A DNA stretch of 43,464 nt from Candidatus Parcubacteria bacterium (lineage in GTDB: Bacteria; Patescibacteriota; Minisyncoccia; Phycocordibacterales; UBA918). The position numbers and the translations under genes are program-made. The DNA lies in contig JBJOPW010000009.1 of NCBI GenBank assembly GCA_046050355.1, positions 1-43,464 on the forward strand, written 5' to 3'. Position 1 is the stretch's first letter. The number at the start of each line of letters is the position of its first letter. The notes below the pieces were generated by a model. The model saw only the letters and a list, made by a program, of their open reading frames with translations, did not search any database and was not told the origin of the DNA. Of the stretch, positions 5,699 through 18,070 are shown one piece after another.

Positions 5699-6346
5699 TT
5701 ACACCTCCCAATTGAGAAGACTTTCTTGTATTGACTTAGTTGTCTCATCATTAACGTCTTCTGGGTTTATACTAGAATTGGCAAATATCACTTGCTCAAT
5801 ATCTTTGAGCATCCGTTCTCGCTCATCGATATCTTCTGCTGAAAAACCTGGTTTGTTTCGAGAGATGTATCTGGCACGGAGATCATCCATTCTCTCTTGT
5901 ATGCTGATGATTCCAAATGGACCAACTCTCATATCACTGTAGGTAGCGATTTTTGCTCCCAGAGAATTACCAGCATGTACTGTGGCGGTATTTTCTGTAC
6001 CAATAGCATCAAGAGCGTAGCTTGTCGCCTCGGTTCCAGGATTTATTTCGTTAATTATAGCTACTGTGGCCAAATGCTCATCGGCTCCATATTGTTCTTT
6101 CATCTCAGCTTGCACTTGAGTCCAATACCCTACCCCTTCTGGTTCGTATAGCTCGGCCATACTGTCCATCTTTGCTTTAATTAAATTCCCCATATCGTGT
6201 AACAGACAGGCGGTGACAATATTCCTGGTATCAAGTTCAACGGTAGATTTGTCGCAGATAAGCTGAGCAACAGCGGCTACTCGAATCATATGCTCTCGCA
6301 AACCTTTGTTAATTCTATATTTGAGGTATATGTTGGTTATGTTCAT
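5699..6346 (-). CDS. HD-domain protein
   Basis: EHMIRVA, LLHDMGN, YSDMRV; start MNITNIY. Confidence 0.85.
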   Translation of the reverse strand: MNITNIYLKYRINKGLREHMIRVAAVAQLICDKSTVELDTRNIVTACLLHDMGNLIKAKMDSMAELYEPEGVGYWTQVQAEMKEQYGADEHLATVAIINEINPGTEATSYALDAIGTENTATVHAGNSLGAKIATYSDMRVGPFGIISIQERMDDLRARYISRNKPGFSAEDIDERERMLKDIEQVIFANSSINPEDVNDETTKSIQESLLNWEV

Positions 6347-6369
6347 AGATATTGAAGTATAGCAAAATT

Positions 6370-6683
6370 TGCGGGTGAGAAGAATCGTCCTGACGGTCAC
6401 CAAGCTATATTTGTTACAAGAATCGGTCACTCTCATGGCTATATTATTTCGCAAGCTCATAATCTAGCTCATTCGCTCGGTTCTTACAGAACCTGTCCAC
6501 TCATTCGCTTATTTGTTTCGAATAGCTCACAAATATGCAGAATGAGTCTTGCGAAATGGGGCCCATCCCATTTCTCACCCCACTCGCGTCGACCCAGAGG
6601 GTCCCCGACGCTCGGTTCGATTCTTCTCACCCGCTACAAACGGCAGCGAGCCAAACACTTTCGTGTTTGGCTCGGCCGATTTG
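6370..6683. repeat. tRNA-linked structured element, copy 1 (Gly-TCC)
   Basis: Direct copy of the tRNA 3' end at 6370-6387 (17/18), inverted copy at 6615-6634, scaffold shared with copies at 13964-14137 and 17795-17997. Confidence 0.8.
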
Positions 6684-6754
6684 TGCGGGCGAGAAGAATC
6701 GAACTCCCATCTACTGGTTGGAAGCCAGTCATTTTACCACTAAACTACGCCCGC
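6684..6754 (-). tRNA. tRNA-Gly(TCC), CCA not encoded
   Basis: GCGGGCGTAGTTTAGTGGTAAAATGACTGGCT-TCC-AACCAGTAGATGGGAGTTCGATTCTTCTCGCCCGCA cloverleaf. Confidence 0.95.
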
Positions 6755-6847
6755 ATATTTAATTGTCTGCTTTGCACTCCTATCGAAGTCCCGAGATTTT
6801 AGCACCATTTAATGAAAATTGCCACTCTAGTTTGCTATACTACCCCT

Positions 6848-7948
6848 ATGCAGTTCATTATCGATATTTTGGTGGCCGGACTGATGGCCTACCTCTCTTT
6901 TACTAACTATCTTGCTGTCGGCATCGAGAATCTTTTTGGTGCTGACGAACCAGAACCCACCGAATCAGCACCAGTGGCAGAAGCCCAGGCTGATACCGTA
7001 AGCAGCGAGCCGACTCGACTCGAATCTATCTTTGCCCGCATCCCAGACATCTTGAAGCGTAGTGCCGAATACCAAAAGGCAGCGGTCATAGACAGTACCA
7101 CTATCGCGGCCACACCCACCACCAATCCGGAGGCGGCTATTGTAAACATTTACTGTACTTTCACCACCGAACGCACCATCCGTACGACGACTGGTACCGG
7201 CTTTATGGTGAGTGAAGATGGTATCGTCCTCACCAATGCCCACGTCGCCCAGTTCCTCCTCCTTGAGGCCTCAGGTGCCCTTGGCGATAGTACTTGTACC
7301 ATTCGTACCGGCTCCCCCGCTGCTCCCCGCTATGTAGCTGAACTACTCTACATCCCACCGGCCTGGGTCTCTGAACATGCTTCCTTGATCGATGCCACTG
7401 CTCCGAGCGGCACCGGCGAACGTGATTATGCGCTATTACATATCACGAAGTCGGTTGATGATACTCCGCTCCCAGCCAAATTCACTGCCCTCCCCCTCTA
7501 CGATGGCCAACTAACACAAAAATCAATTCGCGGTGAGGTGATTGCGGCTGGTTACCCTGCCGTGTATGCCGCCGGCGACACAGACACCAATCTCCGTACA
7601 CGAAGCGCTACCACCTCGGTGTCTGAGCTCTTTACCTTTGGTAAGCAGGATGTCGATGTCCTCGCACTGCGTGGTAGCAGTATGGGGCAGCAAGGCTCAT
7701 CCGGTGGACCGGTCGTCAACGCTGACGGCTACGTGATTGGGATGATTGCCACCAGAGGTAACGATGAAACCGACGGTCCAGGTAGTCTCCGCGCTATCAC
7801 CATTGACCACATCAATCGCACTATTACCGAAGAAACGAACGCATCCCTAAATCAGCACCTCAGTGGCGATATCGCCTCTCGCGCTCGCATCTTTGCCACT
7901 ACTATGACACCGTTCCTTACTAATCTATTAACACAAGAAATTAACTAG
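6848..7948 (+). CDS. Membrane-anchored trypsin-like (S1) serine protease, no evident PDZ
   Basis: GTGF, LTNAHV, DYALL, QGSSGGPV; N-terminal TM. Confidence 0.9.
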   Translation: MQFIIDILVAGLMAYLSFTNYLAVGIENLFGADEPEPTESAPVAEAQADTVSSEPTRLESIFARIPDILKRSAEYQKAAVIDSTTIAATPTTNPEAAIVNIYCTFTTERTIRTTTGTGFMVSEDGIVLTNAHVAQFLLLEASGALGDSTCTIRTGSPAAPRYVAELLYIPPAWVSEHASLIDATAPSGTGERDYALLHITKSVDDTPLPAKFTALPLYDGQLTQKSIRGEVIAAGYPAVYAAGDTDTNLRTRSATTSVSELFTFGKQDVDVLALRGSSMGQQGSSGGPVVNADGYVIGMIATRGNDETDGPGSLRAITIDHINRTITEETNASLNQHLSGDIASRARIFATTMTPFLTNLLTQEIN

Positions 7949-7949
7949 G

Positions 7950-7987
7950 ATCACAAAAAGCGACTGAGACCAGTCGCTTTTTGTGAT
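7950..7987. terminator. Bidirectional terminator
   Basis: ATCACAAAAAGCGACTG/CAGTCGCTTTTTGTGAT between convergent genes. Confidence 0.85.
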
Positions 7988-7993
7988 AGTTTA

Positions 7994-9373
7994 TTACTCT
8001 TCAATGAGCGTTGTCCCAAATATATCGTCAGCCATCTCCGTGGCAATATTTGCTTCGCCTTCGGTCGTCGTGGCGGTGCTTGTCGCTTCAGGTACCTTGG
8101 CTGCCATCATCATGGTCGCGGTATCTGGATTCTCATTAGTAAACGATGCCAGACTAAGGATTGAACGAGTGTAGTCACGGGCTTCTTGAGCTGCTGATTT
8201 CGCTACCATCACGTCAGTATCAAATGATGAGGAAGCGGTCTCTAGAAGCGTTTTTATCTTTGGTACCGTGATAGTAACCTTATCGCTAATACCGGCATCA
8301 GTAACGACGGGGAGTGTTTGCTCAATTTTAACTAGAGCTAATGTGGCCTCGTCATAGGCTGTCATAGCCAAAGCTCGTTCTTCTTCTGGGGTCAGTACCA
8401 TTGGGACTAGCGTCTCGATGGCCAAAGTTGTCCGCACATCAATATCCGTCATGAACGTCAATACTACTTGCATATCTCGCCAGGTCTGCGTTAAATGATC
8501 TTGCCCTTTAGCAGTATCTTCAGTATAGAGGGCTGTGCCTGTTACAATCTTTCGTTCGATATCTCCCAATCGTCGTTCAATATCGGCGTACTCCTGCGCA
8601 GAAGCATCATCTTTTATGCTCAAGAGTAATTCACGTCCACGGGTTGTTTCCTGTTCTAACTGAGCGAGTAATCGGTCATATGAAACAGTGTCTTCCGAAA
8701 CCTGAGCCACTTCCGCTTGCGCTTCGTCAAGAGCCATCGCAATCGCGACTGTCGACATACCTTCAGTGGTACTTGCCGTGTCTCCTGCTCGCAGAGCAGC
8801 TGACTGCACATCAAGAACAGAGACAAAGGCTAATTCTGCCAACGCCGCCGCATCAGCATCAGTGCTTCGTAGCGTGGCGATCTCAGCAGTTGTAGCAGCT
8901 TGATGCTCACTCACGGCAGCAATAACACCAGCTTCGATTTCTGGAGTCAATTTTCCTTCTTTGGCTAAAATACGCGCTTCGGTAATGCGACGTTCTAATC
9001 GTTTGGTTTCCCAGGCAACTTTCTCATAGCCACCGCTGGTGAGACTGGCACGCACCTCTTCATTTACTCGCACTTTCATCGGATAGAGGACATCCCCTGG
9101 TACGGCTCGTTCAGCCAGTACTGGCACACCAATTATTACAAAAGCAAAACAGCCCAGTACCAGCTGGCGATAGAGACGAGTTGGCATCGCCCATTCAATA
9201 AACGGTTCTTGAAATAGTGTACGGCGAGTACTTGATGCTTGTTTTGCAACCGAAGTAGTGAGTGGGTGGTACGCCATATACGCAGTGAGTCGATCACGAA
9301 GAACATCCTTCTCCGCTGCTGAAAGACGGATGTTTGATGCTTGTTTCTTAAACTGTTCGCTAAATCGTTTCAT
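7994..9373 (-). CDS. DUF5667-like membrane protein, putative anti-sigma partner
   Basis: Single TM then AVPGDVLYPMKV..NE..RA motif; directly downstream of an ECF sigma factor. Confidence 0.75.
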   Translation of the reverse strand: MKRFSEQFKKQASNIRLSAAEKDVLRDRLTAYMAYHPLTTSVAKQASSTRRTLFQEPFIEWAMPTRLYRQLVLGCFAFVIIGVPVLAERAVPGDVLYPMKVRVNEEVRASLTSGGYEKVAWETKRLERRITEARILAKEGKLTPEIEAGVIAAVSEHQAATTAEIATLRSTDADAAALAELAFVSVLDVQSAALRAGDTASTTEGMSTVAIAMALDEAQAEVAQVSEDTVSYDRLLAQLEQETTRGRELLLSIKDDASAQEYADIERRLGDIERKIVTGTALYTEDTAKGQDHLTQTWRDMQVVLTFMTDIDVRTTLAIETLVPMVLTPEEERALAMTAYDEATLALVKIEQTLPVVTDAGISDKVTITVPKIKTLLETASSSFDTDVMVAKSAAQEARDYTRSILSLASFTNENPDTATMMMAAKVPEATSTATTTEGEANIATEMADDIFGTTLIEE

Positions 9374-9381
9374 TATGTATA

Positions 9382-9963
9382 TTATTTCTTTTTCTTCTTG
9401 ATTGCCGTGTCGGGGTTATTCCGAGCTTCAATCATGTCGCGTAAGAGCTTCAGTCCACGGTGAATACGGACTGAAACTACATTCTCCGATTCTTCCACCA
9501 GTTCACTAATTTCTTTTGGTCCGAGCCCATCGACAAAGCGGAAGAGGAGTACCTCGCGGTAGACATCAGGCAAAGTTGTAACCAAGGTAAATGCCTGTTT
9601 CCCATCAAGCGTGGCAGCGAGAGCCTCAGTTGTATCCTCGACCAATTCAGAGAATGAGCCTTCGGTTACCCCATCCTGGGCCAAAAGCGCATCAAGTGAT
9701 TGTTCCCGTTGCTTGCGGTACTCATCAATGATGAGATTGTTGAGTACCTTGTACAAAAATGGACGGTACTGCTCCACTTCATGGCCGTTCTTGATGTATG
9801 TCCACACTTTCGTAAAAGTATCGTGTACGAGGTCAATCGCCCGTTCACGGTCACTAATACGTAAAGCAGCATGCCTGAAAAGAGCGTCGTTATACTCAGA
9901 AAACGCTTCTAAAAAGCGCTCCTCTTGGCTTCCGCCTGTCGATGTGGTTTTAGAACCCGCCAT
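9382..9963 (-). CDS. ECF-type RNA polymerase sigma factor
   Basis: Region 2 (AIDLVHDTFTKVW...FLYKVLNNLIIDEYRK) and region 4 (LPDVYREV...KEIS...VSVRIHRG). Confidence 0.93.
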   Translation of the reverse strand: MAGSKTTSTGGSQEERFLEAFSEYNDALFRHAALRISDRERAIDLVHDTFTKVWTYIKNGHEVEQYRPFLYKVLNNLIIDEYRKQREQSLDALLAQDGVTEGSFSELVEDTTEALAATLDGKQAFTLVTTLPDVYREVLLFRFVDGLGPKEISELVEESENVVSVRIHRGLKLLRDMIEARNNPDTAIKKKKK

Positions 9964-10090
9964 GTGGAAACCATTATATATGTAGACGGCGCCCCTGCCT
10001 AATACTTACGGGGAACTAGTAAGTTTTCCACAGGTTGCGCATTCCACAACAATCTTTAAATTATGCAAGGTTAATTGCCTTATTACATAA

Positions 10091-11014
10091 CTAAAACCAC
10101 CCTTTTTTCTGGAAAAACCAGCTGAGAACAGCCAGGACAACCGCGTTGGCTCCCAAAATGTATACAAACGCGTACGGTGAATCCTGGAGTGGTAACTTGA
10201 TGTTCATACCGTAGAGTGAGGCGATTACGAGCGGTACGGTGAGGAGAATGGTGAGTACCGTGAGGATACTAAGTGAATTGTTGAGCCGACTGGTCATAAT
10301 CGCCTCAATCCCCCCACGCATGTTCTGAATAGTCTTGAGAATAGACCGAGCTTGGTTCACCACCTGATTGTTCGCGATGATAATATCTTCCATATCATCA
10401 ATATCGTCAGAGAACAGCTGCATGTAGTTCCCTTTTGGCACCTGCTGGAGCCAAGCGTTCGTCGGCACCAAGGCATCCACCATACTATTAAGGCGCGATT
10501 CGTATTGCACGAGACGTTCAATCCCCTTCATCCCAATCTTCGTGAGTCGAACCCGTTCCTTTTGTACCGCTTTACGCAGCTTAATCAGTTCACTATCGTA
10601 GGAGTTGGTGAGGGCTTCCACCATCAAAATAAAGAATTTGGCTTTCTGCGTGGTCACTACTGCCTCTTTGCCGCTAAAGAACCGCTCAAGGAACGGTACG
10701 GGACGCAGCGCCACCGTGAGCACAAACGATTCTCCCATGATGATGAGGAGTGGCGCGGTTTCGCTATCCTCTTTGATCTCTCGATACGGGTAGCGGGTAA
10801 AGAAATACGTACCGCCATCAGATTTTTCAAGGCGAGGTACCTCAAAGAAGTCCTCGGCGTCTTCCATAATATCCGCATCAAGCCCGAAATCAGCCTGGAG
10901 TTTCTTCATTTCTTCGGGGGTCGGTGATTCGGCATGCACCCATACCCCCGTTCGCACCGCATCGAGCTGCTTTAGTTCAGTGTCTTTAATGGTGCGAAAG
11001 TAGTACGTAATCAT
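10091..11014 (-). CDS. corA: CorA-family Mg2+ transporter
   Basis: Two C-terminal TMs with YGMN signature. Confidence 0.93.
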   Translation of the reverse strand: MITYYFRTIKDTELKQLDAVRTGVWVHAESPTPEEMKKLQADFGLDADIMEDAEDFFEVPRLEKSDGGTYFFTRYPYREIKEDSETAPLLIIMGESFVLTVALRPVPFLERFFSGKEAVVTTQKAKFFILMVEALTNSYDSELIKLRKAVQKERVRLTKIGMKGIERLVQYESRLNSMVDALVPTNAWLQQVPKGNYMQLFSDDIDDMEDIIIANNQVVNQARSILKTIQNMRGGIEAIMTSRLNNSLSILTVLTILLTVPLVIASLYGMNIKLPLQDSPYAFVYILGANAVVLAVLSWFFQKKGWF

Positions 11015-11056
11015 TGCCCTCTACCTTACGCTCCTATCACAATTTTTACAACCCAA

Positions 11057-11932
11057 TTATCCCAAAAACAAGAGGGAAACAATACACAATATGACGGCCA
11101 GTACTTTCTTCCAATCAATGTGTTCTTTGTAAATCAGTACCGCTAGCACAATTGGAATGACGATGTAGAGCCCATGGATGGTCTGCACGATACCTAAGTC
11201 TCCGCCGTGCCCATACGCATAGAGCACGAGGAGTAAAGACAGGCAGATGAGAATTGATCGGAATATAGACGCTTTTAGTAGATCCTTGGTTGTATGTTCT
11301 GTTATATAACGCCATGGCAACGTTCGAAATTTTAGGGATATCATGACGAGACTGGCAATAAAAATACCCCACGATGAATACCAGAGTGCCTCCCACTCAC
11401 TCATCCCCAGGTCAATAACGTACTTATTGAGTGCGGCCGCCAGAGCTGATGTTCCTGATACTACTAGCACCATAACTAATCCCATCAGGAGGTTGTTTTG
11501 GCGTTTGTTTTCAACCTTACTAATGAGGAGGAGCGGCACGAGGTGCCCGAGCGCAATACCAAACCACTCGAGAGCCGTAAATCGTTCACCAAAAAATATC
11601 AAACCAGCTAAAACCGCCAAAAAGGGACTGAGGAGCTTAAATAGCGGAAAGAATATGGTGGTATCAATATATCGAAGTGCAACAATCTTAAGCGAGCCCC
11701 CCTGTGCTGCAACTCCTCCGGCAATTACCGTAATAACAACCAATAAAAGCGTTACTACCCCATCTGGCCTGAGAATAAGTAAGCCAGCTCCTGCAAATAC
11801 TACCGAGACAACTCCCGAGTAAAGAATAAAAACATCGGCATCAAAACCCTTTTTGGCGGCAATCTTGAACCCAAAATTACTAATCCCTGCCAATACCATA
11901 CCAGTGACCGCCGCCCAAAACCAAAGTTGCAT
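11057..11932 (-). CDS. EamA/DMT-family transporter
   Basis: About 10 TM helices in two repeats (FFGERFT; IYKEHID); start MQLWFW. Confidence 0.85.
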   Translation of the reverse strand: MQLWFWAAVTGMVLAGISNFGFKIAAKKGFDADVFILYSGVVSVVFAGAGLLILRPDGVVTLLLVVITVIAGGVAAQGGSLKIVALRYIDTTIFFPLFKLLSPFLAVLAGLIFFGERFTALEWFGIALGHLVPLLLISKVENKRQNNLLMGLVMVLVVSGTSALAAALNKYVIDLGMSEWEALWYSSWGIFIASLVMISLKFRTLPWRYITEHTTKDLLKASIFRSILICLSLLLVLYAYGHGGDLGIVQTIHGLYIVIPIVLAVLIYKEHIDWKKVLAVILCIVSLLFLG

Positions 11933-12079
11933 ACGTGCAATTGTAGCAAACAAAAAGCCTGTTTCATACGAAACAGGCTTTTTGTTTATTTGTATGACAA
12001 TACAAACTTCACTCCCTTGGTCATAAAAATAAAACTTCGTTTTACTATGTCTTATTTTGCGACACCACTCGTTTATTTG

Positions 12080-12150
12080 TCGGGGAGCGGAGAATCGAAC
12101 TCCGGCCATTCGGTCCCAAACCGAACACACTACCATTATGCTACACCCCG
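12080..12150 (-). tRNA. tRNA-Pro(TGG), CCA not encoded
   Basis: CGGGGTGTAGCATAATGGTAGTGTGTTCGGTT-TGG-GACCGAATGGCCGGAGTTCGATTCTCCGCTCCCCGA. Confidence 0.93.
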
Positions 12151-12209
12151 ATATTCGTTTGTGGCTGTGATAATATCACCCTTTATCAAAAAAAGCGAGA
12201 AATTTTTGT

Positions 12210-12584
12210 CTAATTGGCTCGTGCTTCAAAATGTAAAATTCTATGGCAATTCGCACAAAGGACTGCGCATTTTGCTATCTCTTGATTCAACCGATCTGTG
12301 CCAAACTGATGATAATAATAATCAGAAATAGCAAAATCTTTTGTTTGACTATCTCGATGATGAAATTCCAGTACCCGGACATCACGAATACCACATCTCT
12401 CACAGCCTAACTCCTCTTTTCGTTCGTCAATAATAGAACGACGTTTGGATTTTAGAATATTCTTAGTCTTTCGGTAACAATATCTGCATTTTTGTCTTCT
12501 ATAGACTTTCTCACCAACAGTTTTTGCCACACCGAAATCTGTTTCTGGGTAAGACTTATGGCAATAGCGACAGACCTTATCCAT
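12210..12584 (-). CDS. Zinc-binding HNH-type endonuclease
   Basis: CRYC..CRYC, CERCG...LEFHH...LCANCHRILH; start 12584 (or 12596). Confidence 0.85.
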   Translation of the reverse strand: MDKVCRYCHKSYPETDFGVAKTVGEKVYRRQKCRYCYRKTKNILKSKRRSIIDERKEELGCERCGIRDVRVLEFHHRDSQTKDFAISDYYYHQFGTDRLNQEIAKCAVLCANCHRILHFEARAN

Positions 12585-12616
12585 AACTTTAATCATAGCA
12601 CATTTCGAACCACATC

Positions 12617-13121
12617 TTAAAGTCCCAAAACACTATTCAGACTAGTGCTATGATTTAAACTCGACAGAGCACCAAAACGACCATCAATAACCTCGCTCCC
12701 CTTTGTGCCCGGCCTAGCCATCCGCAGGACGGTGCTGTTTGGAAATTTCGTAGCAAATGCTTCCAAATGCTCGATTGTGTCGTCAATAAAAACTACCTTT
12801 TCACATGAAACACCGGAATCGAGGTACTTTTTTATGAAATCGGCCTTACTCCCCTGTTCCACGTAGAACATTTGATCAAAATGTGAGGCTAATCCAGATA
12901 GTCTAAACTTACATTCCTACACCTGACGGCGACCAAAAGTCACCAAATGGCAGGTAAAACCAGTTTGCTGTACGTTCCATATGAAACTTAGGACGTCGGG
13001 ATAGATGGACCTCAAAATCAGCTCCCAGCTGGCCAGCTATAATCCATGCCAGTTCCAGCGAGTTATAAAAACGTTCGGTATCAAAGAGAGTTCGATCAAA
13101 ATCCAGGAAGATATGTTTCAT
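12617..13121 (-). pseudogene. HAD-superfamily hydrolase pseudogene
   Basis: Motif I FLDFDRTLFD and motif IV VFIDDT are in different frames; frameshift near 13003 (continues YPDVLSF...LVTFG) plus in-frame TAG at 12917-12919. Confidence 0.8.
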
Positions 13122-13168
13122 TACAGATAACAACAAACAAATCAGCCAAAATGTTGCACATGAAACTA

Positions 13169-13582
13169 CTAGATAATGATATTTTCAATAACTTTTACGG
13201 TTGCAAACGTTTCACGTGGTACAATACGTACCGCTACTACATCAATTTGCCAATCCCCTTCATATTTATGCTCCATCAGCCAGCTTTCGATGGCACGGGA
13301 AAGCTTTTTGAGCTTGAATGGATGTACGTTCTCTTCTGGACGCCAGGTTCCATAAGAAACTGCCTGCTCTAGATTACTTTTTGTTTCATATGAAACTGTT
13401 TTCACCTCAATAAAGTGTACTTTTTCATACTTTTTGGCAATAACATCAATTTCTCCCCATTTTTTGCGATAATTCCGACCAATAATCAGAAAACCCTGCT
13501 TTTTTAGATATACCGCGGCTATAGACTCGCCGCGAGCACCAGTTTCGTTATTCTGTGCCTTTTTTCGGACACTCTGTTCCAT
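13169..13582 (-). CDS. yraN: YraN-family (UPF0102) nuclease
   Basis: GARGESIA..YL...RNYR...GEIDVIA...HFIEVKT. Confidence 0.93.
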   Translation of the reverse strand: MEQSVRKKAQNNETGARGESIAAVYLKKQGFLIIGRNYRKKWGEIDVIAKKYEKVHFIEVKTVSYETKSNLEQAVSYGTWRPEENVHPFKLKKLSRAIESWLMEHKYEGDWQIDVVAVRIVPRETFATVKVIENIII

Positions 13583-13741
13583 ATGAAACTAGTATACCAG
13601 TTTGTTATGCTAGAACGACTGCTTTAGCCTCAACTTTTAAGCCGTTTCATGTGTAACAACAAAAACACTTTCTTTTACTAGCCATATTCTACCAGCATTA
13701 ACAAGCAATGTGTGCCACGTGGCACACATATTTTCTATGAG

Positions 13742-13846
13742 ATATCCACGGCTTTGAGATTGTAGCCATATAAAATAAGGTTTTTTGTAAAAGAATCGTG
13801 TCTTTGAGACATGTCCTTTATACACATGTTCACACGGTTATGCACT
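13742..13846 (+). promoter_or_regulatory. DnaA-box-like sites in a non-coding gap, candidate oriC
   Basis: TTATACACA 13818-13826 (matches TTWTNCACA), TTATGCACT 13838-13846, ATATCCACG 13742-13750, AT-rich tract ~13768-13792. Confidence 0.35.
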
Positions 13847-13963
13847 GTTTTGCGATGTCTGCCCATAGTTTGTGCTACTAACACTGATTATAGTTAGGAA
13901 AATCAAGACTTTGGCGGTTGGGGTAGTCGTTAAGGTTGAGGTTTTCGCTCAGTTAACATTGCA

Positions 13964-14137
13964 GCGGCTAGAGAGACTTGATCCCTACCGGACTAAGTCA
14001 CCCAATTGGCTACATTATTTCGCTAGGCTTATAATCTACCGGAAACGCGCCTCGATTCTGCAAAAGGCTTTATTTGCATAAGTTTCGCTTCTAGCTGCAC
14101 ATATGAAAAACCCGCAATGAAGCGGGTTTTTCATATG
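13964..14137. repeat. tRNA-linked structured element, copy 2 (Gly-GCC), degenerate
   Basis: Direct tRNA-3' copy 13964-13981 (15/18), scaffold GTCAC..TGGCTACATTATTTCG..ATAATCTA, perfect 26-bp inverted repeat 14090-14115/14122-14147 entering the tRNA. Confidence 0.7.
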
Positions 14138-14208
14138 TGCAGCTAGAGAGAATCGAACTCTCGACTTAACATTGGCAATGTCATGTTATACCACTTAACC
14201 ATAGCTGC
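14138..14208 (-). tRNA. tRNA-Gly(GCC), CCA not encoded
   Basis: GCAGCTATGGTTAAGTGGTATAACATGACATT-GCC-AATGTTAAGTCGAGAGTTCGATTCTCTCTAGCTGCA. Confidence 0.92.
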
Positions 14209-14214
14209 TTTTAT

Positions 14215-14889
14215 TTATTTGTCACCCGAAGGTAATGTATTTAATACTATTTTGGGAATTTGGTCAATCCAAGTTAGCAACTTTCGTTTCAAGTACGTGT
14301 TACTGACAAGAATGGTACATGTTCCATATGGCAATTTTTTGGTTTTGTGACGACTTGGTAAGACCATTGTCTTATGGAAGACTTGTAATCCAGTGTTATT
14401 TTCCCAATATTTTTTACACTCTGTCTCGTCCAAATCTTCATATAAATATAGTGCCCCGCGTATTTTTTCTGGCGGAACCAAGCAAAATGTGAGTAAAAAT
14501 TGTCTGAACAGTTTGATCATTTGAGGATCAGTATTGGCTAAACGAACTAAACTACTTTTTGATTTATCTCCCTCACCCCAATACGCGACAACGCCAGCTA
14601 TAAATAACTGATTGTCTCTATATTTTATCAGTTCTTCGCTGGCTTCTCGCTCCGCTTGAGTATAGTAGGCTTGCAATAGATCTCCTCTAGCTCGATTCAA
14701 GACCTGTAATCGTGCAGTGCTTTTGGTCTGTGACGTTATAGTTAGGGCGCGTTTGATATCTTCCGAAAAATCTTGTCCCTTGAACCAGTTGGAAAGAGTA
14801 CTTTTTGCGACGTTGAGGGCTAACGCTATCTCATTGTAACTTTTACCTTCTTTACGAAGCATAAAAGCCCTATCTTTATCTGTTCTCAT
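14215..14889 (-). CDS. HTH + LAGLIDADG-like protein (tRNA-adjacent family)
   Basis: HTH LRKEGKSYNEIA..VAKSTLSNW; FIAGVVAYWGEG helix, NTDPQMI, C-terminal YGTC. Confidence 0.8.
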   Translation of the reverse strand: MRTDKDRAFMLRKEGKSYNEIALALNVAKSTLSNWFKGQDFSEDIKRALTITSQTKSTARLQVLNRARGDLLQAYYTQAEREASEELIKYRDNQLFIAGVVAYWGEGDKSKSSLVRLANTDPQMIKLFRQFLLTFCLVPPEKIRGALYLYEDLDETECKKYWENNTGLQVFHKTMVLPSRHKTKKLPYGTCTILVSNTYLKRKLLTWIDQIPKIVLNTLPSGDK

Positions 14890-14917
14890 TCATACTATAT
14901 TAGCATATGACCAAGGT

Positions 14918-15592
14918 TCATTTCTTCTGCAACTCTGTTTCGAGGAGGGATATCCATTTTTGGAGCTTTTTCTTGAGCAATGTGTTTGTAATCACCGTAT
15001 TTCCGACGCCAAAATGCAACGTCTCTTTCTGGGTACGGCTGGGAATAACCTGGTTCTTGTAGAATTGAGCCGGAGATAGAGTGGTTTTTTGGCACCAGCG
15101 CTTCATACTGGCCACTTCATCATGATCAGGATAGAGGAGCAGCCAGAAGCGTATATCAGCTTTAGCTACACCCAAGTAGGTGGTCACAAAGCGAATAAAG
15201 AGCCGGTGGAGCTCTGGGCGGCTACCAGACAGGCGGATAAGCCTCGGTTGTTTGCTGTCTCCAGCGGTCATATAAAGCGTCAGGCCAGCGATAAACAGGG
15301 CAGAGAGGCGATAGTGCTGATACTCCGTCCCGGCCGAGCGTAGCGCCTCGGTGTACTGGTGGCGGCGTTCCGCTACTCGAGCTTTATTGATAAGCGCGAG
15401 GCGTTTGGTGTTTTGAATGACTGCCTGCTTTTGATTATCTTTGGCCACTCCTTTTGAGAATGGTTCGTGTCGCAGCCAGTTACTCACCGTACCTTTGGAA
15501 ACGTTACAAATCTTGGCTATTTCCGCATACGTGAAGCCACGCCGACGGAAAGCGACGGCTTGTTCATAGGCTTCTTGCTTGTAGTGGGTCAT
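14918..15592 (-). CDS. HTH + LAGLIDADG-like paralog with altered motif
   Basis: Same length and architecture; FIAGLTLYMTAGD replaces AYWGEG. Confidence 0.78.
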   Translation of the reverse strand: MTHYKQEAYEQAVAFRRRGFTYAEIAKICNVSKGTVSNWLRHEPFSKGVAKDNQKQAVIQNTKRLALINKARVAERRHQYTEALRSAGTEYQHYRLSALFIAGLTLYMTAGDSKQPRLIRLSGSRPELHRLFIRFVTTYLGVAKADIRFWLLLYPDHDEVASMKRWCQKTTLSPAQFYKNQVIPSRTQKETLHFGVGNTVITNTLLKKKLQKWISLLETELQKK

Positions 15593-15702
15593 AATGAGTA
15601 TTGCAAAGTTCGTATATTATATAGTACTAGCAATGTTCATTTCTACTGCAAATGGAGCGCCGGTAGGGGATACCGACGTTACATATACCAGGACGAGGCG
15701 GA

Positions 15703-15987
15703 TTACGAATCACCGTCAATCTCTTCACCGACGACCAATTGCACACCTTGTGGCCCAACTACGGCATAGTGTGGAGTGGTGGGTGGAACATCAATGCGGT
15801 CACCGGTTTTGTAGTTTGTGGTTACTCCATTAATCGTAAAATCAATCGAACCCTCAGTGACAAACAACGCCACTTTACCAACATGACTATGCTCGGGATA
15901 GACGGTGCCGGGCTTATCTTGCCATTCGTAGATATAAGGCCAATCTTCTTTTTCAAACTGGGCGATACAGCGCTCGGAGAGTTCCAT
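15703..15987 (-). CDS. Cupin-domain protein
   Basis: PEHSH...VTEGSI...GDRIDVPPTTPH. Confidence 0.88.
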   Translation of the reverse strand: MELSERCIAQFEKEDWPYIYEWQDKPGTVYPEHSHVGKVALFVTEGSIDFTINGVTTNYKTGDRIDVPPTTPHYAVVGPQGVQLVVGEEIDGDS

Positions 15988-15989
15988 AA

Positions 15990-16634
15990 CTAGGCAAAGT
16001 GCTGCGTATCACCGTTTTTCATCGGAATAAAATCAATCTGATGGTTGGCCAGCTGATTTTTACAGAGTCCATGGACCAAGTTCATACCATCATCATTTAA
16101 TACCGCATCATGTACCGGAAAAGCCTGTTTCGGCGCAAGGGTGACAGCGTAATTGAGCGCATCTTTGATTGCGCACCAGGGACCAGAGACGGGTAGGGCA
16201 AGAATTGGTACGGGTTTGCCTGGATTGAGGTAGGCATCACCCGGGTAGAAGAGGGTTTTATCGATAAAAAATCCGGTGTTTTCTACCTGTCCGAATTCAC
16301 CAAAAATTTCCACGTGTTTGCCAGCACGAGCTTCAATACAGACATCACAGACATCAGTTTCTACTGCTTCCTCGAGCACGCTATAGGCAATCCCTAATTC
16401 TGTAAGCATTCGACCAACACTTTCGTTGGTGACCACTTGGGCTTGTGGGTTATTCTTCATTATCTGTGCCATAGAGTCACTATGGAGATGATCGGCATGC
16501 TCGTGGGTAATCAGGATAAGATCAATAGCAGTTAGATCATTCTGCGCAGTAGTAAAGCGTCCAGGGTCGGTAAGAATACGCTTACCCGCGGTTTCGATAA
16601 GGAGGCAGCACTGGCCAATTTTGGTGATGTTCAT
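15990..16634 (-). CDS. MBL-fold metallo-hydrolase
   Basis: ILTDPG, THEHADH, YPGD, PVHD; start MNITKIG. Confidence 0.92.
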   Translation of the reverse strand: MNITKIGQCCLLIETAGKRILTDPGRFTTAQNDLTAIDLILITHEHADHLHSDSMAQIMKNNPQAQVVTNESVGRMLTELGIAYSVLEEAVETDVCDVCIEARAGKHVEIFGEFGQVENTGFFIDKTLFYPGDAYLNPGKPVPILALPVSGPWCAIKDALNYAVTLAPKQAFPVHDAVLNDDGMNLVHGLCKNQLANHQIDFIPMKNGDTQHFA

Positions 16635-16723
16635 ACAAAGTAGTATAACAAAATCAACAGCAAACGTGATAGGAGTCTCAAGATTGGTGATTCTAGATGC
16701 AATTACTGGTAAGATGTCTGGTG

Positions 16724-17782
16724 ATGGATCCAAAAATTGACAGTCTGCTTGATCAGGCCGTGGCAAAAAATGTATTCCCTGGCTGTAATTTTGCTATTGT
16801 CAGCGCTGGCAGTGTTGCCTACAAGTCATTTGGTAATTTCACGTACGAAACTAACGCACCGCGAGTGACAATTGATACAATCTACGATTGTGCATCACTC
16901 ACCAAGATTGTTGGACCGATGGCTGTAGCAATGCAACTGGTAGACGAAGGAGTGCTTTCCCTTGATGAACCAGTTGGGAAGTATCTACCAGAGTTTGTAT
17001 CAGAACCACAAAAAGCCCACGCCACGATTGGGCATCTCATGACATATACGCTCGATTATGATATTCCTGGTGGATCAAAATCTCTCCTTGGCACACTATC
17101 ACCGGACCAAGTAGCCAAAAATGCAATTATATATCCTCTCAAACACGCTCCGGGGATAAATTATATGTACTCAAACATCACTGCATTTGTTTTGACGCAA
17201 GTGATAGAACGAGCAATTGGCCAAAACTTTTATGAGTTGGTGCAAGAACGGATTTTTAATCCTCTCCTCATGCACACTGCCACCTTTAATCCGTCAAAAG
17301 AGCAGATGAATACAATTCAGCCAACAGAACTAACGCCAGAACGAGGATTGGTGCAGGGAACTGTCCATGATGAATTTACGGACCGTACTACTGCCGGAAA
17401 CATCAGCAATGGGGCAGCCGGCTTATTTGCGAGCATAAAAGATATTGCTTCTTTTTTGCAGATGACCATCGAAAGCGGAAAAACGAGTACAAAAACATTT
17501 TTTAGTGATCACATGGTAAAAGCCTGGACAGAAGAACAATTTCCAAATTTACTGCCGATCCTGACGCCGCTCGGGTGGGGAGACCAAAATAATGCTTTGC
17601 TTGAAAAATATCACCGTCAGATGGTTGTTAAGAGTGGTTTTACAGGGTGCTTTATGGCAGGTGATTTACTAAACAAAAAAGGCTTTGCGCTGTTATCAAA
17701 CCGCACTTATCCGGTACGACCAATGAATGCGACAGCGTTTGGTGAAGTGAAAGAGAAATTGATGGAAGTGGTGTTTGGGTAA
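16724..17782 (+). CDS. Serine hydrolase, beta-lactamase/PBP family
   Basis: ASLTK (SxxK), YSN, GTVHDE, GAAGLF, KSGFTG. Confidence 0.92.
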   Translation: MDPKIDSLLDQAVAKNVFPGCNFAIVSAGSVAYKSFGNFTYETNAPRVTIDTIYDCASLTKIVGPMAVAMQLVDEGVLSLDEPVGKYLPEFVSEPQKAHATIGHLMTYTLDYDIPGGSKSLLGTLSPDQVAKNAIIYPLKHAPGINYMYSNITAFVLTQVIERAIGQNFYELVQERIFNPLLMHTATFNPSKEQMNTIQPTELTPERGLVQGTVHDEFTDRTTAGNISNGAAGLFASIKDIASFLQMTIESGKTSTKTFFSDHMVKAWTEEQFPNLLPILTPLGWGDQNNALLEKYHRQMVVKSGFTGCFMAGDLLNKKGFALLSNRTYPVRPMNATAFGEVKEKLMEVVFG

Positions 17783-17794
17783 GGTGATGGCTTG

Positions 17795-17997
17795 CCGGAG
17801 GGACTCGGTCCTTACAGGACCAGTATAGGACTCGGTCACGCTCATGGAGATTTTATTTCGTTCCTCATAAAATATCTCATTCGCCCGACCCGGACTGTTC
17901 CGGCCCTAAAGGGGACCCCGGAGCAGTCTTTCGAGTCCCACCGGGTGCTACAAACGGCAACGGCCCAAATGCGTATGCATTTGGGCCGGCCGGTTTG
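17795..17997. repeat. tRNA-linked structured element, copy 3 (Arg-TCG)
   Basis: Direct tRNA-3' copy 17795-17807 (13/13), inverted copy 17930-17948 (18/19), same scaffold as copy 1. Confidence 0.8.
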
Positions 17998-18070
17998 TGC
18001 ACCCGGAGGGACTCGAACCCCCAACCTTCTCGTCCGAAGCGAGCTGCCCTATCCGTTAGGCCACGGGTGC
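17998..18070 (-). tRNA. tRNA-Arg(TCG), CCA not encoded
   Basis: GCACCCGTGGCCTAACGGATAGGGCAGCTCGCT-TCG-GACGAGAAGGTTGGGGGTTCGAGTCCCTCCGGGTGCA. Confidence 0.92.

Follow-up and report, generated by a model that had tools for sequence, protein, structure and literature searches.

What are the structured sequences that sit directly behind three tRNA genes on one contig of an ultra-small Patescibacteria genome, and why does each of them carry copies, in both orientations, of the gene end that it adjoins? The question is raised by contig JBJOPW010000009.1 of a Candidatus Parcubacteria bacterium (assembly GCA_046050355.1), whose 43,464 nucleotides were analysed as a whole and are called the window below. 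The genome (G000) comprises 939,894 bases on 17 contigs, of which the window is contig C9; it is 99.97% complete and contains 42 tRNA genes according to ARAGORN. Four of these, for Gly-TCC, Pro-TGG, Gly-GCC and Arg-TCG, were placed on the minus strand of the window by both ARAGORN and Rfam, and an element starts directly 3' of tRNA-Gly(TCC), tRNA-Gly(GCC) and tRNA-Arg(TCG). We put at roughly 0.55 the probability that these are non-coding, non-autonomous, target-tailored insertion elements of about 110-310 nt, found at the 3' ends of tRNA genes and at some other gene ends that precede a hairpin. They appear to be confined to one order of the Patescibacteria.

Read in tRNA orientation, the parts follow the same order in all three window copies: the tRNA, a hairpin after the gene end (H0), an antisense arm, a set of scaffold hairpins and a direct copy. 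In what follows, X denotes the last ~20 nt of the upstream gene, which in tRNAs run from the T loop through the discriminator; the arm is rc(X), the reverse complement of X; and X' is the direct copy of X beyond the scaffold, with a length of 6-21 nt. At least three scaffold types recur, and for one of them, type A, a covariance model (R1) was built from an alignment of 20 copies. All window coordinates given below refer to the minus strand.

Copy 1 adjoins tRNA-Gly(TCC) (6683/4-6754), the last ~20 nt of which are its target sequence X. Its H0 (6641-6678) lies directly after the tRNA and is an imperfect hairpin of the type C kind without a T run; the same H0 family is also found behind Arg, Ala and Leu tRNAs. 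The antisense arm (6615-6634) is the reverse complement of the tRNA 3' end with one G-to-A-type difference. It is followed by a nested type A unit (6478-6584; R1 score 85.5 bits, E 9e-19) made up of a first hairpin (hp1), the junction CAAGA, hp2, a GTAC-like junction and hp3 with a TGTAA loop, then by a further scaffold (6388-6477) with a GA-loop hairpin and a GTGACC-type end, and finally by X' (6371-6387), which agrees with the tRNA at 17/20 positions over a 20-nt window. In copy 2, behind tRNA-Gly(GCC) (14137/8-14208), H0 (14101-14136) is a perfect palindrome of an A run and a T run, of the terminator type. Beyond it lie an antisense copy of the acceptor 3' strand (14090-14100, 9/9), a scaffold (13980-14089) that holds a GA-loop hairpin at 14008-14040, and a partly decayed X' (13964-13979). 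Copy 3, behind tRNA-Arg(TCG) (17997/8-18070), has a type C hairpin as H0 (17955-17992) and a contiguous antisense arm (17929-17949) that fits its own tRNA at 18/20 positions and other tRNAs at 10-13/20. The type C scaffold (17834-17928) ends in GTGACC, and a short direct copy of the start of the T loop/T stem (17828-17833) forms the right boundary of the type C unit. Further out, an hp3-type hairpin with a TGTAA loop (17808-17825), the remnant of a type A unit with a weak R1 match (17806-17900, 26 bits), is followed by a second, longer direct copy of the tRNA 3' end (17795-17807).

The hairpins, inverted copies and direct copies that the initial annotation of this DNA had listed are all in place, and its view that the three elements are homologous holds. 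They differ in their combination of modules, however: copy 1 is composite and contains a nested unit, copy 3 joins a type C unit to a terminal hairpin, and copy 2 represents a third scaffold type that is not matched by R1; moreover, the family is not limited to these three but extends over the genome and the order. Each window copy is predicted to fold such that the arm pairs with X' and closes a multi-branched structure. Relative to dinucleotide shuffles the fold z scores are -8.1, -4.7 and -6.3 for copies 1, 2 and 3, respectively, and no shuffle folded as well. A consensus terminator scan called none of the three H0 hairpins, because their T runs lie within the stems.

In copy 1 the arm and X' both differ from the tRNA at one common base. 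This had been pointed out earlier and is correct, but the argument built on it is weakened, since the base in question is the one present in the tRNA-Gly(TCC) of two sister species. The shared base thus reflects common ancestry and not covariation, the arm and X' having kept an older state of the tRNA. Directly after the X' of this element, at 6340-6370 and at the equivalent positions of two further loci (L022 and L023), a conserved TGCTATACT-type extended -10 box is found, with the ATG of the next gene some 10-25 nt further on. The gene beyond the Gly-TCC element seems to be served by a separate promoter and to have only a very short leader.

The relation between element and tRNA could be followed over the whole genome. 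A direct copy of the last 17 nt of the tRNA (at most 3 mismatches) occurs within 600 nt downstream of 14 of the 42 tRNAs and an inverted copy downstream of 8, while the upstream flanks contain a direct or an inverted copy in none of the 42. In a stricter test, which used 15 nt excluding the conserved T loop, each tRNA was compared with its own flank and with the flanks of other tRNAs. A direct copy (at least 12/15) was present in the own downstream flank for 16/42 tRNAs, against 23/1722 of the mismatched pairs; for an antisense piece of the acceptor (at least 8/9) these numbers were 14/42 and 19/1722. The variable segments therefore track the adjacent tRNA, as had been proposed for the three window copies. 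By either criterion, direct or antisense, 19 of the 42 tRNAs are occupied, and reading of the sequences adds Ala-GGC, Leu-TAG, Leu-CAG, Arg-GCG, Arg-CCT and a tRNA-Asp that was missed by ARAGORN, which brings the number of different tRNAs occupied in this 0.94-Mb genome to more than 20. The missing tRNA-Asp(GTC) gene is located on the minus strand of contig C4 (~67900-68400) and contains a group I intron in its anticodon loop (L055:1827-2069; Rfam Intron_gpI, 79.2 bits at a gathering threshold of 50); 3' of it lies a composite type C plus type A element, whose arm fits the tRNA end at 22/22 positions by eye. Among the tRNA genes that encode their own CCA an element was detected by the same criteria in 1 of 8 (His), and among those without an encoded CCA in 18 of 34. 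In the sister species G019 the gene for tRNA-Gly(GCC) encodes CCA and carries no element. On these raw counts, the entry of elements and CCA-less gene ends may be linked.

With copy 3 as query, paralogues were retrieved within G000 at E values from 1.8e-32 to 1.6e-17, which together with the fold z scores places the similarity of the scaffolds beyond chance. A search of this genome with the covariance model R1 yields 41 copies (E up to 0.01). Of the best 35 of these matches, 14 are found on the strand of an ARAGORN tRNA and no more than 600 nt downstream of it, the tRNA-Asp with the intron is followed by another, and the other 20 are intergenic, in either orientation with respect to the neighbouring genes. 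A 5S rRNA gene (L018:946-1053) is situated between two inverted type A units, at C2:125187-125295 (+) and 125694-125799 (-), near a contig end. These two units may pair in the rRNA precursor, or they may mark a break of the assembly at a repeat.

The type A scaffold consists of hp1, a junction CAAGA or TTCGAAGA, hp2, a junction (T)GTAC and hp3. The first of these hairpins is small; hp2 is long, with an internal loop and a GA-rich tip; hp3 is short and has an invariant TAC-G on its 5' side in addition to an invariant TGTAA loop. In the alignment of 20 copies there are 21 consensus pairs, 20 of which show compensatory changes. In a larger set of 46 R1 matches, taken from 35 loci of many genomes, 96.0% of the cells are paired, double changes occur in 21/21 pairs, and none of 500 shuffles scored as high; when the partners are slid by 1-3 columns, pairing falls to 37-51%. 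This alignment was fitted to R1 and hence leans toward the structure, whereas the RNAalifold result is independent of it. In view of the size of the effect and of that independent result, the scaffold hairpins are secure. For generic type A units located away from tRNAs, stems that would close the unit are mostly no better than in shuffles, so the relation between arm and flank holds for whole composites and not for every nested unit.

As to known families, Rfam 15 scans of the stretches gave only tRNA, 5S rRNA and one group I intron above the gathering threshold, and scans of the window elements and ten further loci, by gathering threshold as well as by E value, returned no family. A tmRNA or another tRNA-like gene was considered and rejected: ARAGORN finds nothing within the elements, and the tmRNA of G000 sits elsewhere, outside of them. 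In the literature searched, at the level of titles and abstracts, no description of such elements was encountered, although they may have been described in other journals. The family thus appears to be undescribed, in agreement with the initial annotation, which had recognised no named family.

Outside this genome, R1 matches 91 of 150 other sampled genomes of the same order, which often contain 10-25 copies each and comprise more than 100 families, against a single one in a sample of 150 from the rest of the phylum; with G000 included, 59 of the 151 genomes of the order have no match. The exact 21-position pattern of the hp2-hp3 junction was found in at least 119 stretches of species-representative genomes. 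Among the 80 matches listed, the named titles are all of the Patescibacteria type (Parcubacteria, Paceibacterota, Nomura-, Kaiser-, Zambryski- and Taylorbacteria, Patescibacteria, and automated 'Saccharibacteria' labels). A DNA query with copy 3 retrieved relatives in 21 of 41 genomes, G000 counted.

Are tRNA ends the only targets? On contig C7 a protein-coding gene ends before a hairpin in the same layout as the tRNA elements. The last ~24 nt of this gene pair with the stretch just past the hairpin (fold z = -8.2), and downstream follow a type A scaffold, a diverged direct copy of the gene end and further units of the same logic. Within the tRNA set, the arms of the Arg-GCG, Arg-TCT and Arg-CCT elements fit the spacer and only the last bases of the tRNA; those of Arg-GCG and Arg-CCT pair with the spacer together with the final 5 nt of the tRNA. 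The gene end on C7 and the spacer arms of the Arg elements imply that X is whatever precedes the hairpin. Tailoring to tRNA ends, as originally claimed, is therefore correct as far as it goes but too narrow: the rule X - H0 - rc(X) - scaffold - X' is a general one, of which tRNA ends are the commonest case.

Comparison of the syntenic regions of five sister species points to turnover. The gene for tRNA-Pro(TGG), at 12079-12150 in the window, has no element in G000, G007 and G019 but is followed by tailored elements in three other sister species (G018, G006 and G010), and tRNA-Arg(TCG) has no element in G006. Scaffold types vary by species behind Gly-TCC, Gly-GCC and Arg-TCG, with three different types at Gly-TCC alone. 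A contig of a related strain (metagenome run X5) covers copy 1 on both sides, but in place of 6480-6610 it has 56 other letters; the missing stretch corresponds to the nested type A unit. Empty sites in relatives, which the initial annotation had suggested looking for, are thus seen at tRNA-Pro(TGG), at tRNA-Arg(TCG) in G006 and, for the nested unit, in the X5 contig. G000 and G007 differ in element type at the Arg-GCG site but share the distal terminator beyond it, from which it follows that the whole unit has been exchanged since the two species split.

Units are also stacked. Behind Arg-TCG, G007 has three tandem units, and behind tRNA-Ser(ACT) units of types A, B and C form a stack of three, each with its own H0 and with an arm matching this tRNA. 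With increasing distance from the tRNA, the X' copies of this stack are perfect, perfect and decayed, an order that repeated entry beside the gene would produce. The hairpin after X' is related to H0 in 2 of 24 elements, and one H0 family is common to type C units at different tRNAs, which indicates that H0 comes with the element; a long target-site duplication of the hairpin together with X was rejected, as it is seen in those 2/24 cases only. On these sequence comparisons, units can be said to insert, nest, stack and get replaced. Of the options that had been named at the outset, a target-programmable non-autonomous element lies closest to this evidence of insertion polymorphism, a missing nested unit, stacking, and near-identical scaffolds with different arms.

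The last of these points is clearest in G007. Behind its Arg-GCG, Phe-GAA and Arg-TCG tRNAs lie type C units whose scaffolds of 95-96 nt share 95.8-96.9% identity among themselves and 94.8-96.9% with the window's Arg-TCG copy. Identity between their 21-nt arms reaches only 57-65%, and each arm fits its own tRNA at 18-19/20 positions and other tRNAs at 10-12/20. A single scaffold lineage is therefore found behind different tRNAs, with precisely the arm being different. The identity of H0 among type C copies is intermediate (67-91%), and where the H0 stems of type C paralogues differ they do so by full double changes throughout (14/14, 10/10 and 4/4 positions), none being broken and none passing through G-U. 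Either the arm was written from the target when the unit was installed, or scaffolds have been swapped as cassettes between sites that were already tailored. Fresh copying is favoured by the arms being perfect in the youngest-looking units and by the changes in H0 all being symmetric.

We infer from these patterns how units might insert, including the copying of the arm, the active form and the enzyme. Recombination at the X boundary, which in tRNAs is the T loop, would bring a new unit in beside the gene; the gene end would be kept, and older units would be pushed outward. X, H0 and rc(X) form one long hairpin, and the 20-nt arm would be rewritten for each new site, most likely by fold-back templated synthesis in which the target is copied across H0. 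Cassette exchange between already tailored sites would be an alternative route. The enzyme would act in trans, and the elements would move, or be recognised, as folded single strands. Folded single strands serve as recombination sites in the integron attC, the CTX phage attP and the terminal hairpins of parvoviruses, each of which is a long imperfect hairpin with bulges. The elements resemble these in their conserved bulges and in that the stem of the folded strand would reproduce a duplex recognition site, and the stem of some units carries two side hairpins, as in folded attC-type sites; this is a resemblance only, and here the stem is the end of a host gene and changes with each site. In its boldest form, namely transposase-gene-free mobile DNA with a target that is written in nucleic acid and rewritten at each jump, the arm being copied across the hairpin or guiding a host-encoded recombinase, the idea is a tentative one.

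Several observations weigh against insertion with fresh tailoring. At the tRNA-Leu(CAG) locus (C5:46700-47800) two direct copies equal the 3' end of tRNA-Leu(TAG) at 18/18 positions and that of the local tRNA at 14/18, and the tRNA-Leu(TAG) gene lies on another contig. The X' at this site was therefore carried in and not copied from the target, which points to a possible exchange of element parts between the loci of similar tRNAs. The Leu-TAA and Leu-CAA elements are nearly identical in H0 and scaffold and differ in a small hairpin in the arm region, a situation that would fit gene conversion between old elements as well as new insertion. The type C hairpin keeps conserved asymmetric bulges, which count against a naive form of fold-back copying, since simple fold-back copying would erase them. 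No pattern is apparent in the mismatches of X with rc(X), of which 13 are of the G-U type, 15 of the A-C type and 30 transversions. A 168-nt match between the elements of two species is 94% identical, and the Arg-TCG scaffold 96.9%, whereas the flanking genes are 74-80% identical; such conservation could reflect constraint at the level of the host instead of selfish spread. In assembled contigs of DNA runs no excised or circular form was seen and, apart from the nested unit of copy 1, no strain-level pair of filled and empty sites. Finally, searches by domain, by co-occurrence and among neighbouring open reading frames (ORFs) have identified no enzyme for the elements, as detailed below.

Constraint at the host level is central to the main rival explanation, which we consider rather improbable but which could coexist with mobility. 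It regards the elements as a cis-acting RNA module owned by the host and co-transcribed with the tRNA or mRNA, in which the arm has either the upstream RNA's 3' end or X' as its pairing partner. A domain that binds a protein or a ligand would then be formed by the scaffold, and the module would either regulate processing at the 3' end, stability or read-through, or be set free by tRNA-processing enzymes as an RNA capped by a tRNA-like helix. The strong covariation of the scaffold hairpins, the GA-rich apical loops, the conservation of orthologous copies above that of the neighbouring genes and the order-wide retention in very small genomes are all in line with such a module, as is the type C H0, which has no T run and thus makes read-through from the tRNA plausible. 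On the tRNA-sense strand G-U exceeds A-C by 15 to 7 in hp2 and by 13 to 5 in hp3, a weak hint of an RNA from that strand, in a count that is biased because the alignment was fitted to a model built on this same strand. A look-up of RNA runs listed none containing the locus, and a metatranscriptome gave it no coverage, which speaks neither for nor against expression. In the long hairpin only 13 of 431 H0 stem pairs are G-U, and together with the patternless mismatches between X and the arm this weighs against constraint at the RNA level. Of 64 sites at which X' differs from the tRNA, the arm follows the tRNA in 52 cases and X' in 8, many of the sites being located at the T-loop boundary; there is thus no sign of compensatory evolution between arm and X'. 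Nor would a module of the host be expected to be oriented inconsistently with respect to the neighbouring genes, as the copies away from tRNAs are, to be interchangeable in scaffold type at one and the same tRNA, or to be lacking at about half of the tRNAs and in the 59 genomes of the order without a match.

If the elements are mobile, which known systems do they resemble? Integrative elements that target tRNA genes (tyrosine-integrase islands, prophages and tycheposons) insert at the 3' part of the tRNA and leave it intact; they produce a direct repeat of the tRNA 3' end from or near the T loop, and repeated integration gives rise to arrays of partial ends. The elements described here likewise lie between direct repeats of the tRNA 3' end and leave the tRNA intact. 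They differ in being gene-free, in their size of 110-310 nt, in having no integrase of their own and in their covarying multi-hairpin scaffold; an internal antisense copy of the target forms a long hairpin, and more than 20 tRNAs as well as the end of a protein gene are used. It might be supposed that they are the scars of larger elements of this kind, in which the att arms remain after deletion of the interior and the direct repeat is the attL/attR core. The repeats do begin in the T loop, the stacking beside tRNAs is reminiscent of repeated integration, and G000 encodes a P4-type integrase and two large serine recombinases besides a Xer-like tyrosine recombinase. These genes lie away from the elements, though, and no integrase adjoins any of 30 loci from 30 genomes. 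A full-length version was not seen, and a phage origin was dismissed: an exact-pattern scan of viral contigs, with one variant of the pattern, gave a single intragenic match of 15.6 bits that was taken as chance. Since covarying hairpins and an antisense copy of the core are not expected of att arms, and since the end of a protein gene shows the same architecture, we regard scars as very unlikely, and the earlier opinion that a plain att duplication is inadequate is borne out.

A constant scaffold combined with a segment complementary to the target is also characteristic of the bridge RNA of IS110 and the guide sequences of IS200/IS605. By analogy with IS110, IS200/IS605 or TIGR-Tas, the elements could bear the guide for a recombinase or nuclease that is directed by RNA or DNA, the protein itself being an unrecognised one encoded elsewhere. 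Such a role would agree with the constant scaffold and the 20-nt segment complementary to the target, and with an X' of opposite-strand sense, by which both strands of the target could potentially be read. The invariant unpaired TAC-G and TGTAA by and in a covarying hairpin, moreover, form the pattern expected of a hairpin recognised by a protein. The dual spacers of TIGR-Tas are reported to pair with opposite strands, and one TasR ortholog is from Parcubacteria (PMC12045711). The signature proteins, however, were not found in the nearly complete G000: there was no match for the DEDD transposase of IS110 (PF01548), the TnpB-type domain (PF07282) or, at E up to 0.1, the Nop domain (PF01798), and L7Ae was not found either. 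The units of at least 110 nt also differ from the 36-nt guide arrays beside a Tas gene (PMC12045711). No ORF family recurs beside the 30 loci. The arm of ~20 nt, contiguous or split by a hairpin, is accompanied by a direct copy of the target, and a guided enzyme would not need X'. A guide function of this type is unlikely, and the suggestion of a guide RNA for one of the known RNA-guided enzymes is not supported for G000.

REP, BIME and REPIN sequences and bacterial MITEs are short, intergenic, palindromic, modular, multi-copy and lineage-specific, and are often located just past gene ends. The elements share the short, palindromic and modular character, the multiple copies, the lineage specificity and the intergenic position after gene ends, and they could be repeats of the REP/BIME kind that are moved as single-stranded hairpins by RAYT-like Y1 (HUH) transposases. 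G000 has one IS200-like and three RAYT-like Y1 genes, the latter coding for proteins of 215-237 aa (C2:111284-111997, C1:5772-6458 and C1:69059-69706), and hp3 with its invariant TAC-G carries a conserved motif on the 5' side that may be comparable to the tetranucleotide of REP sequences. The RAYT-like genes are flanked by GC-rich perfect palindromes of another repeat family, with no adjoining R1 match. Over the 151 genomes of the order, R1 and Y1_Tnp (PF01797) occur together in 55, R1 alone in 37, Y1_Tnp alone in 36 and neither in 23, an odds ratio of 0.95; the R1-positive genomes without a Y1 match include G217 with 24 matches and the single-contig G221 with 17. The elements also have no fixed terminal inverted repeats, what might pass for terminal repeats being the end of the neighbouring gene and thus different at each site. 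In the absence of any association, mobilisation by Y1/HUH (RAYT) enzymes was rejected; a co-occurring Y1 or RAYT gene, as had been envisaged, is not what the genomes show, and this origin is highly improbable.

Reverse transcription was considered as well. Group IIC introns insert just past terminator-like hairpins and have an internal segment complementary to the upstream flank, two traits that recur in the elements, which lie downstream of a hairpin-adjacent end and contain such a segment. Unlike these introns, the elements are too small and have no Rfam group II match, and 49 of the 92 element-bearing genomes lack RVT_1. Over the 151 genomes R1 and RVT_1 are found together in 43, R1 only in 49, RVT_1 only in 19 and neither in 40 (odds ratio 1.85, p 0.09, a value that overstates the link as the genomes are related). 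Dependence on a reverse transcriptase was rejected on the weakness of this link, on the number of element-bearing genomes without RVT_1 and on the only reverse transcriptase of G000 being of the diversity-generating type. The core of this diversity-generating retroelement (C11:360-2393; L026) consists of a 349-aa reverse transcriptase, a bAvd-like protein and an adjacent OB-fold (tRNA_anti-like) protein, and no scaffold unit adjoins it.

Target-tailored insertion thus is the reading we prefer. If the elements are indeed mobile, a gene-free parasite of ~150 nt occupies half of the tRNA genes in a 0.9-Mb genome without breaking them, and its specificity shifts between tRNAs while the scaffold stays 96-97% identical. 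This would bear on insertion specificity encoded in nucleic acid, which is relevant to programmable insertion tools, on the reason why the ends of tRNA genes are universal landing sites, and on the intergenic content of ultra-small Patescibacteria genomes. Should the target be rewritten in the way proposed, any gene end located before a hairpin could be open to colonisation by a single scaffold lineage, and the elements would represent a natural self-reprogramming insertion system in the bacteria with the smallest genomes. If they are instead RNA modules of the host, they would add to tRNA and mRNA 3'-end biology a layer that is specific to this order and has so far gone unlisted. On either reading, annotation pipelines leave the elements blank, and as repeats they probably break the assemblies of these genomes.

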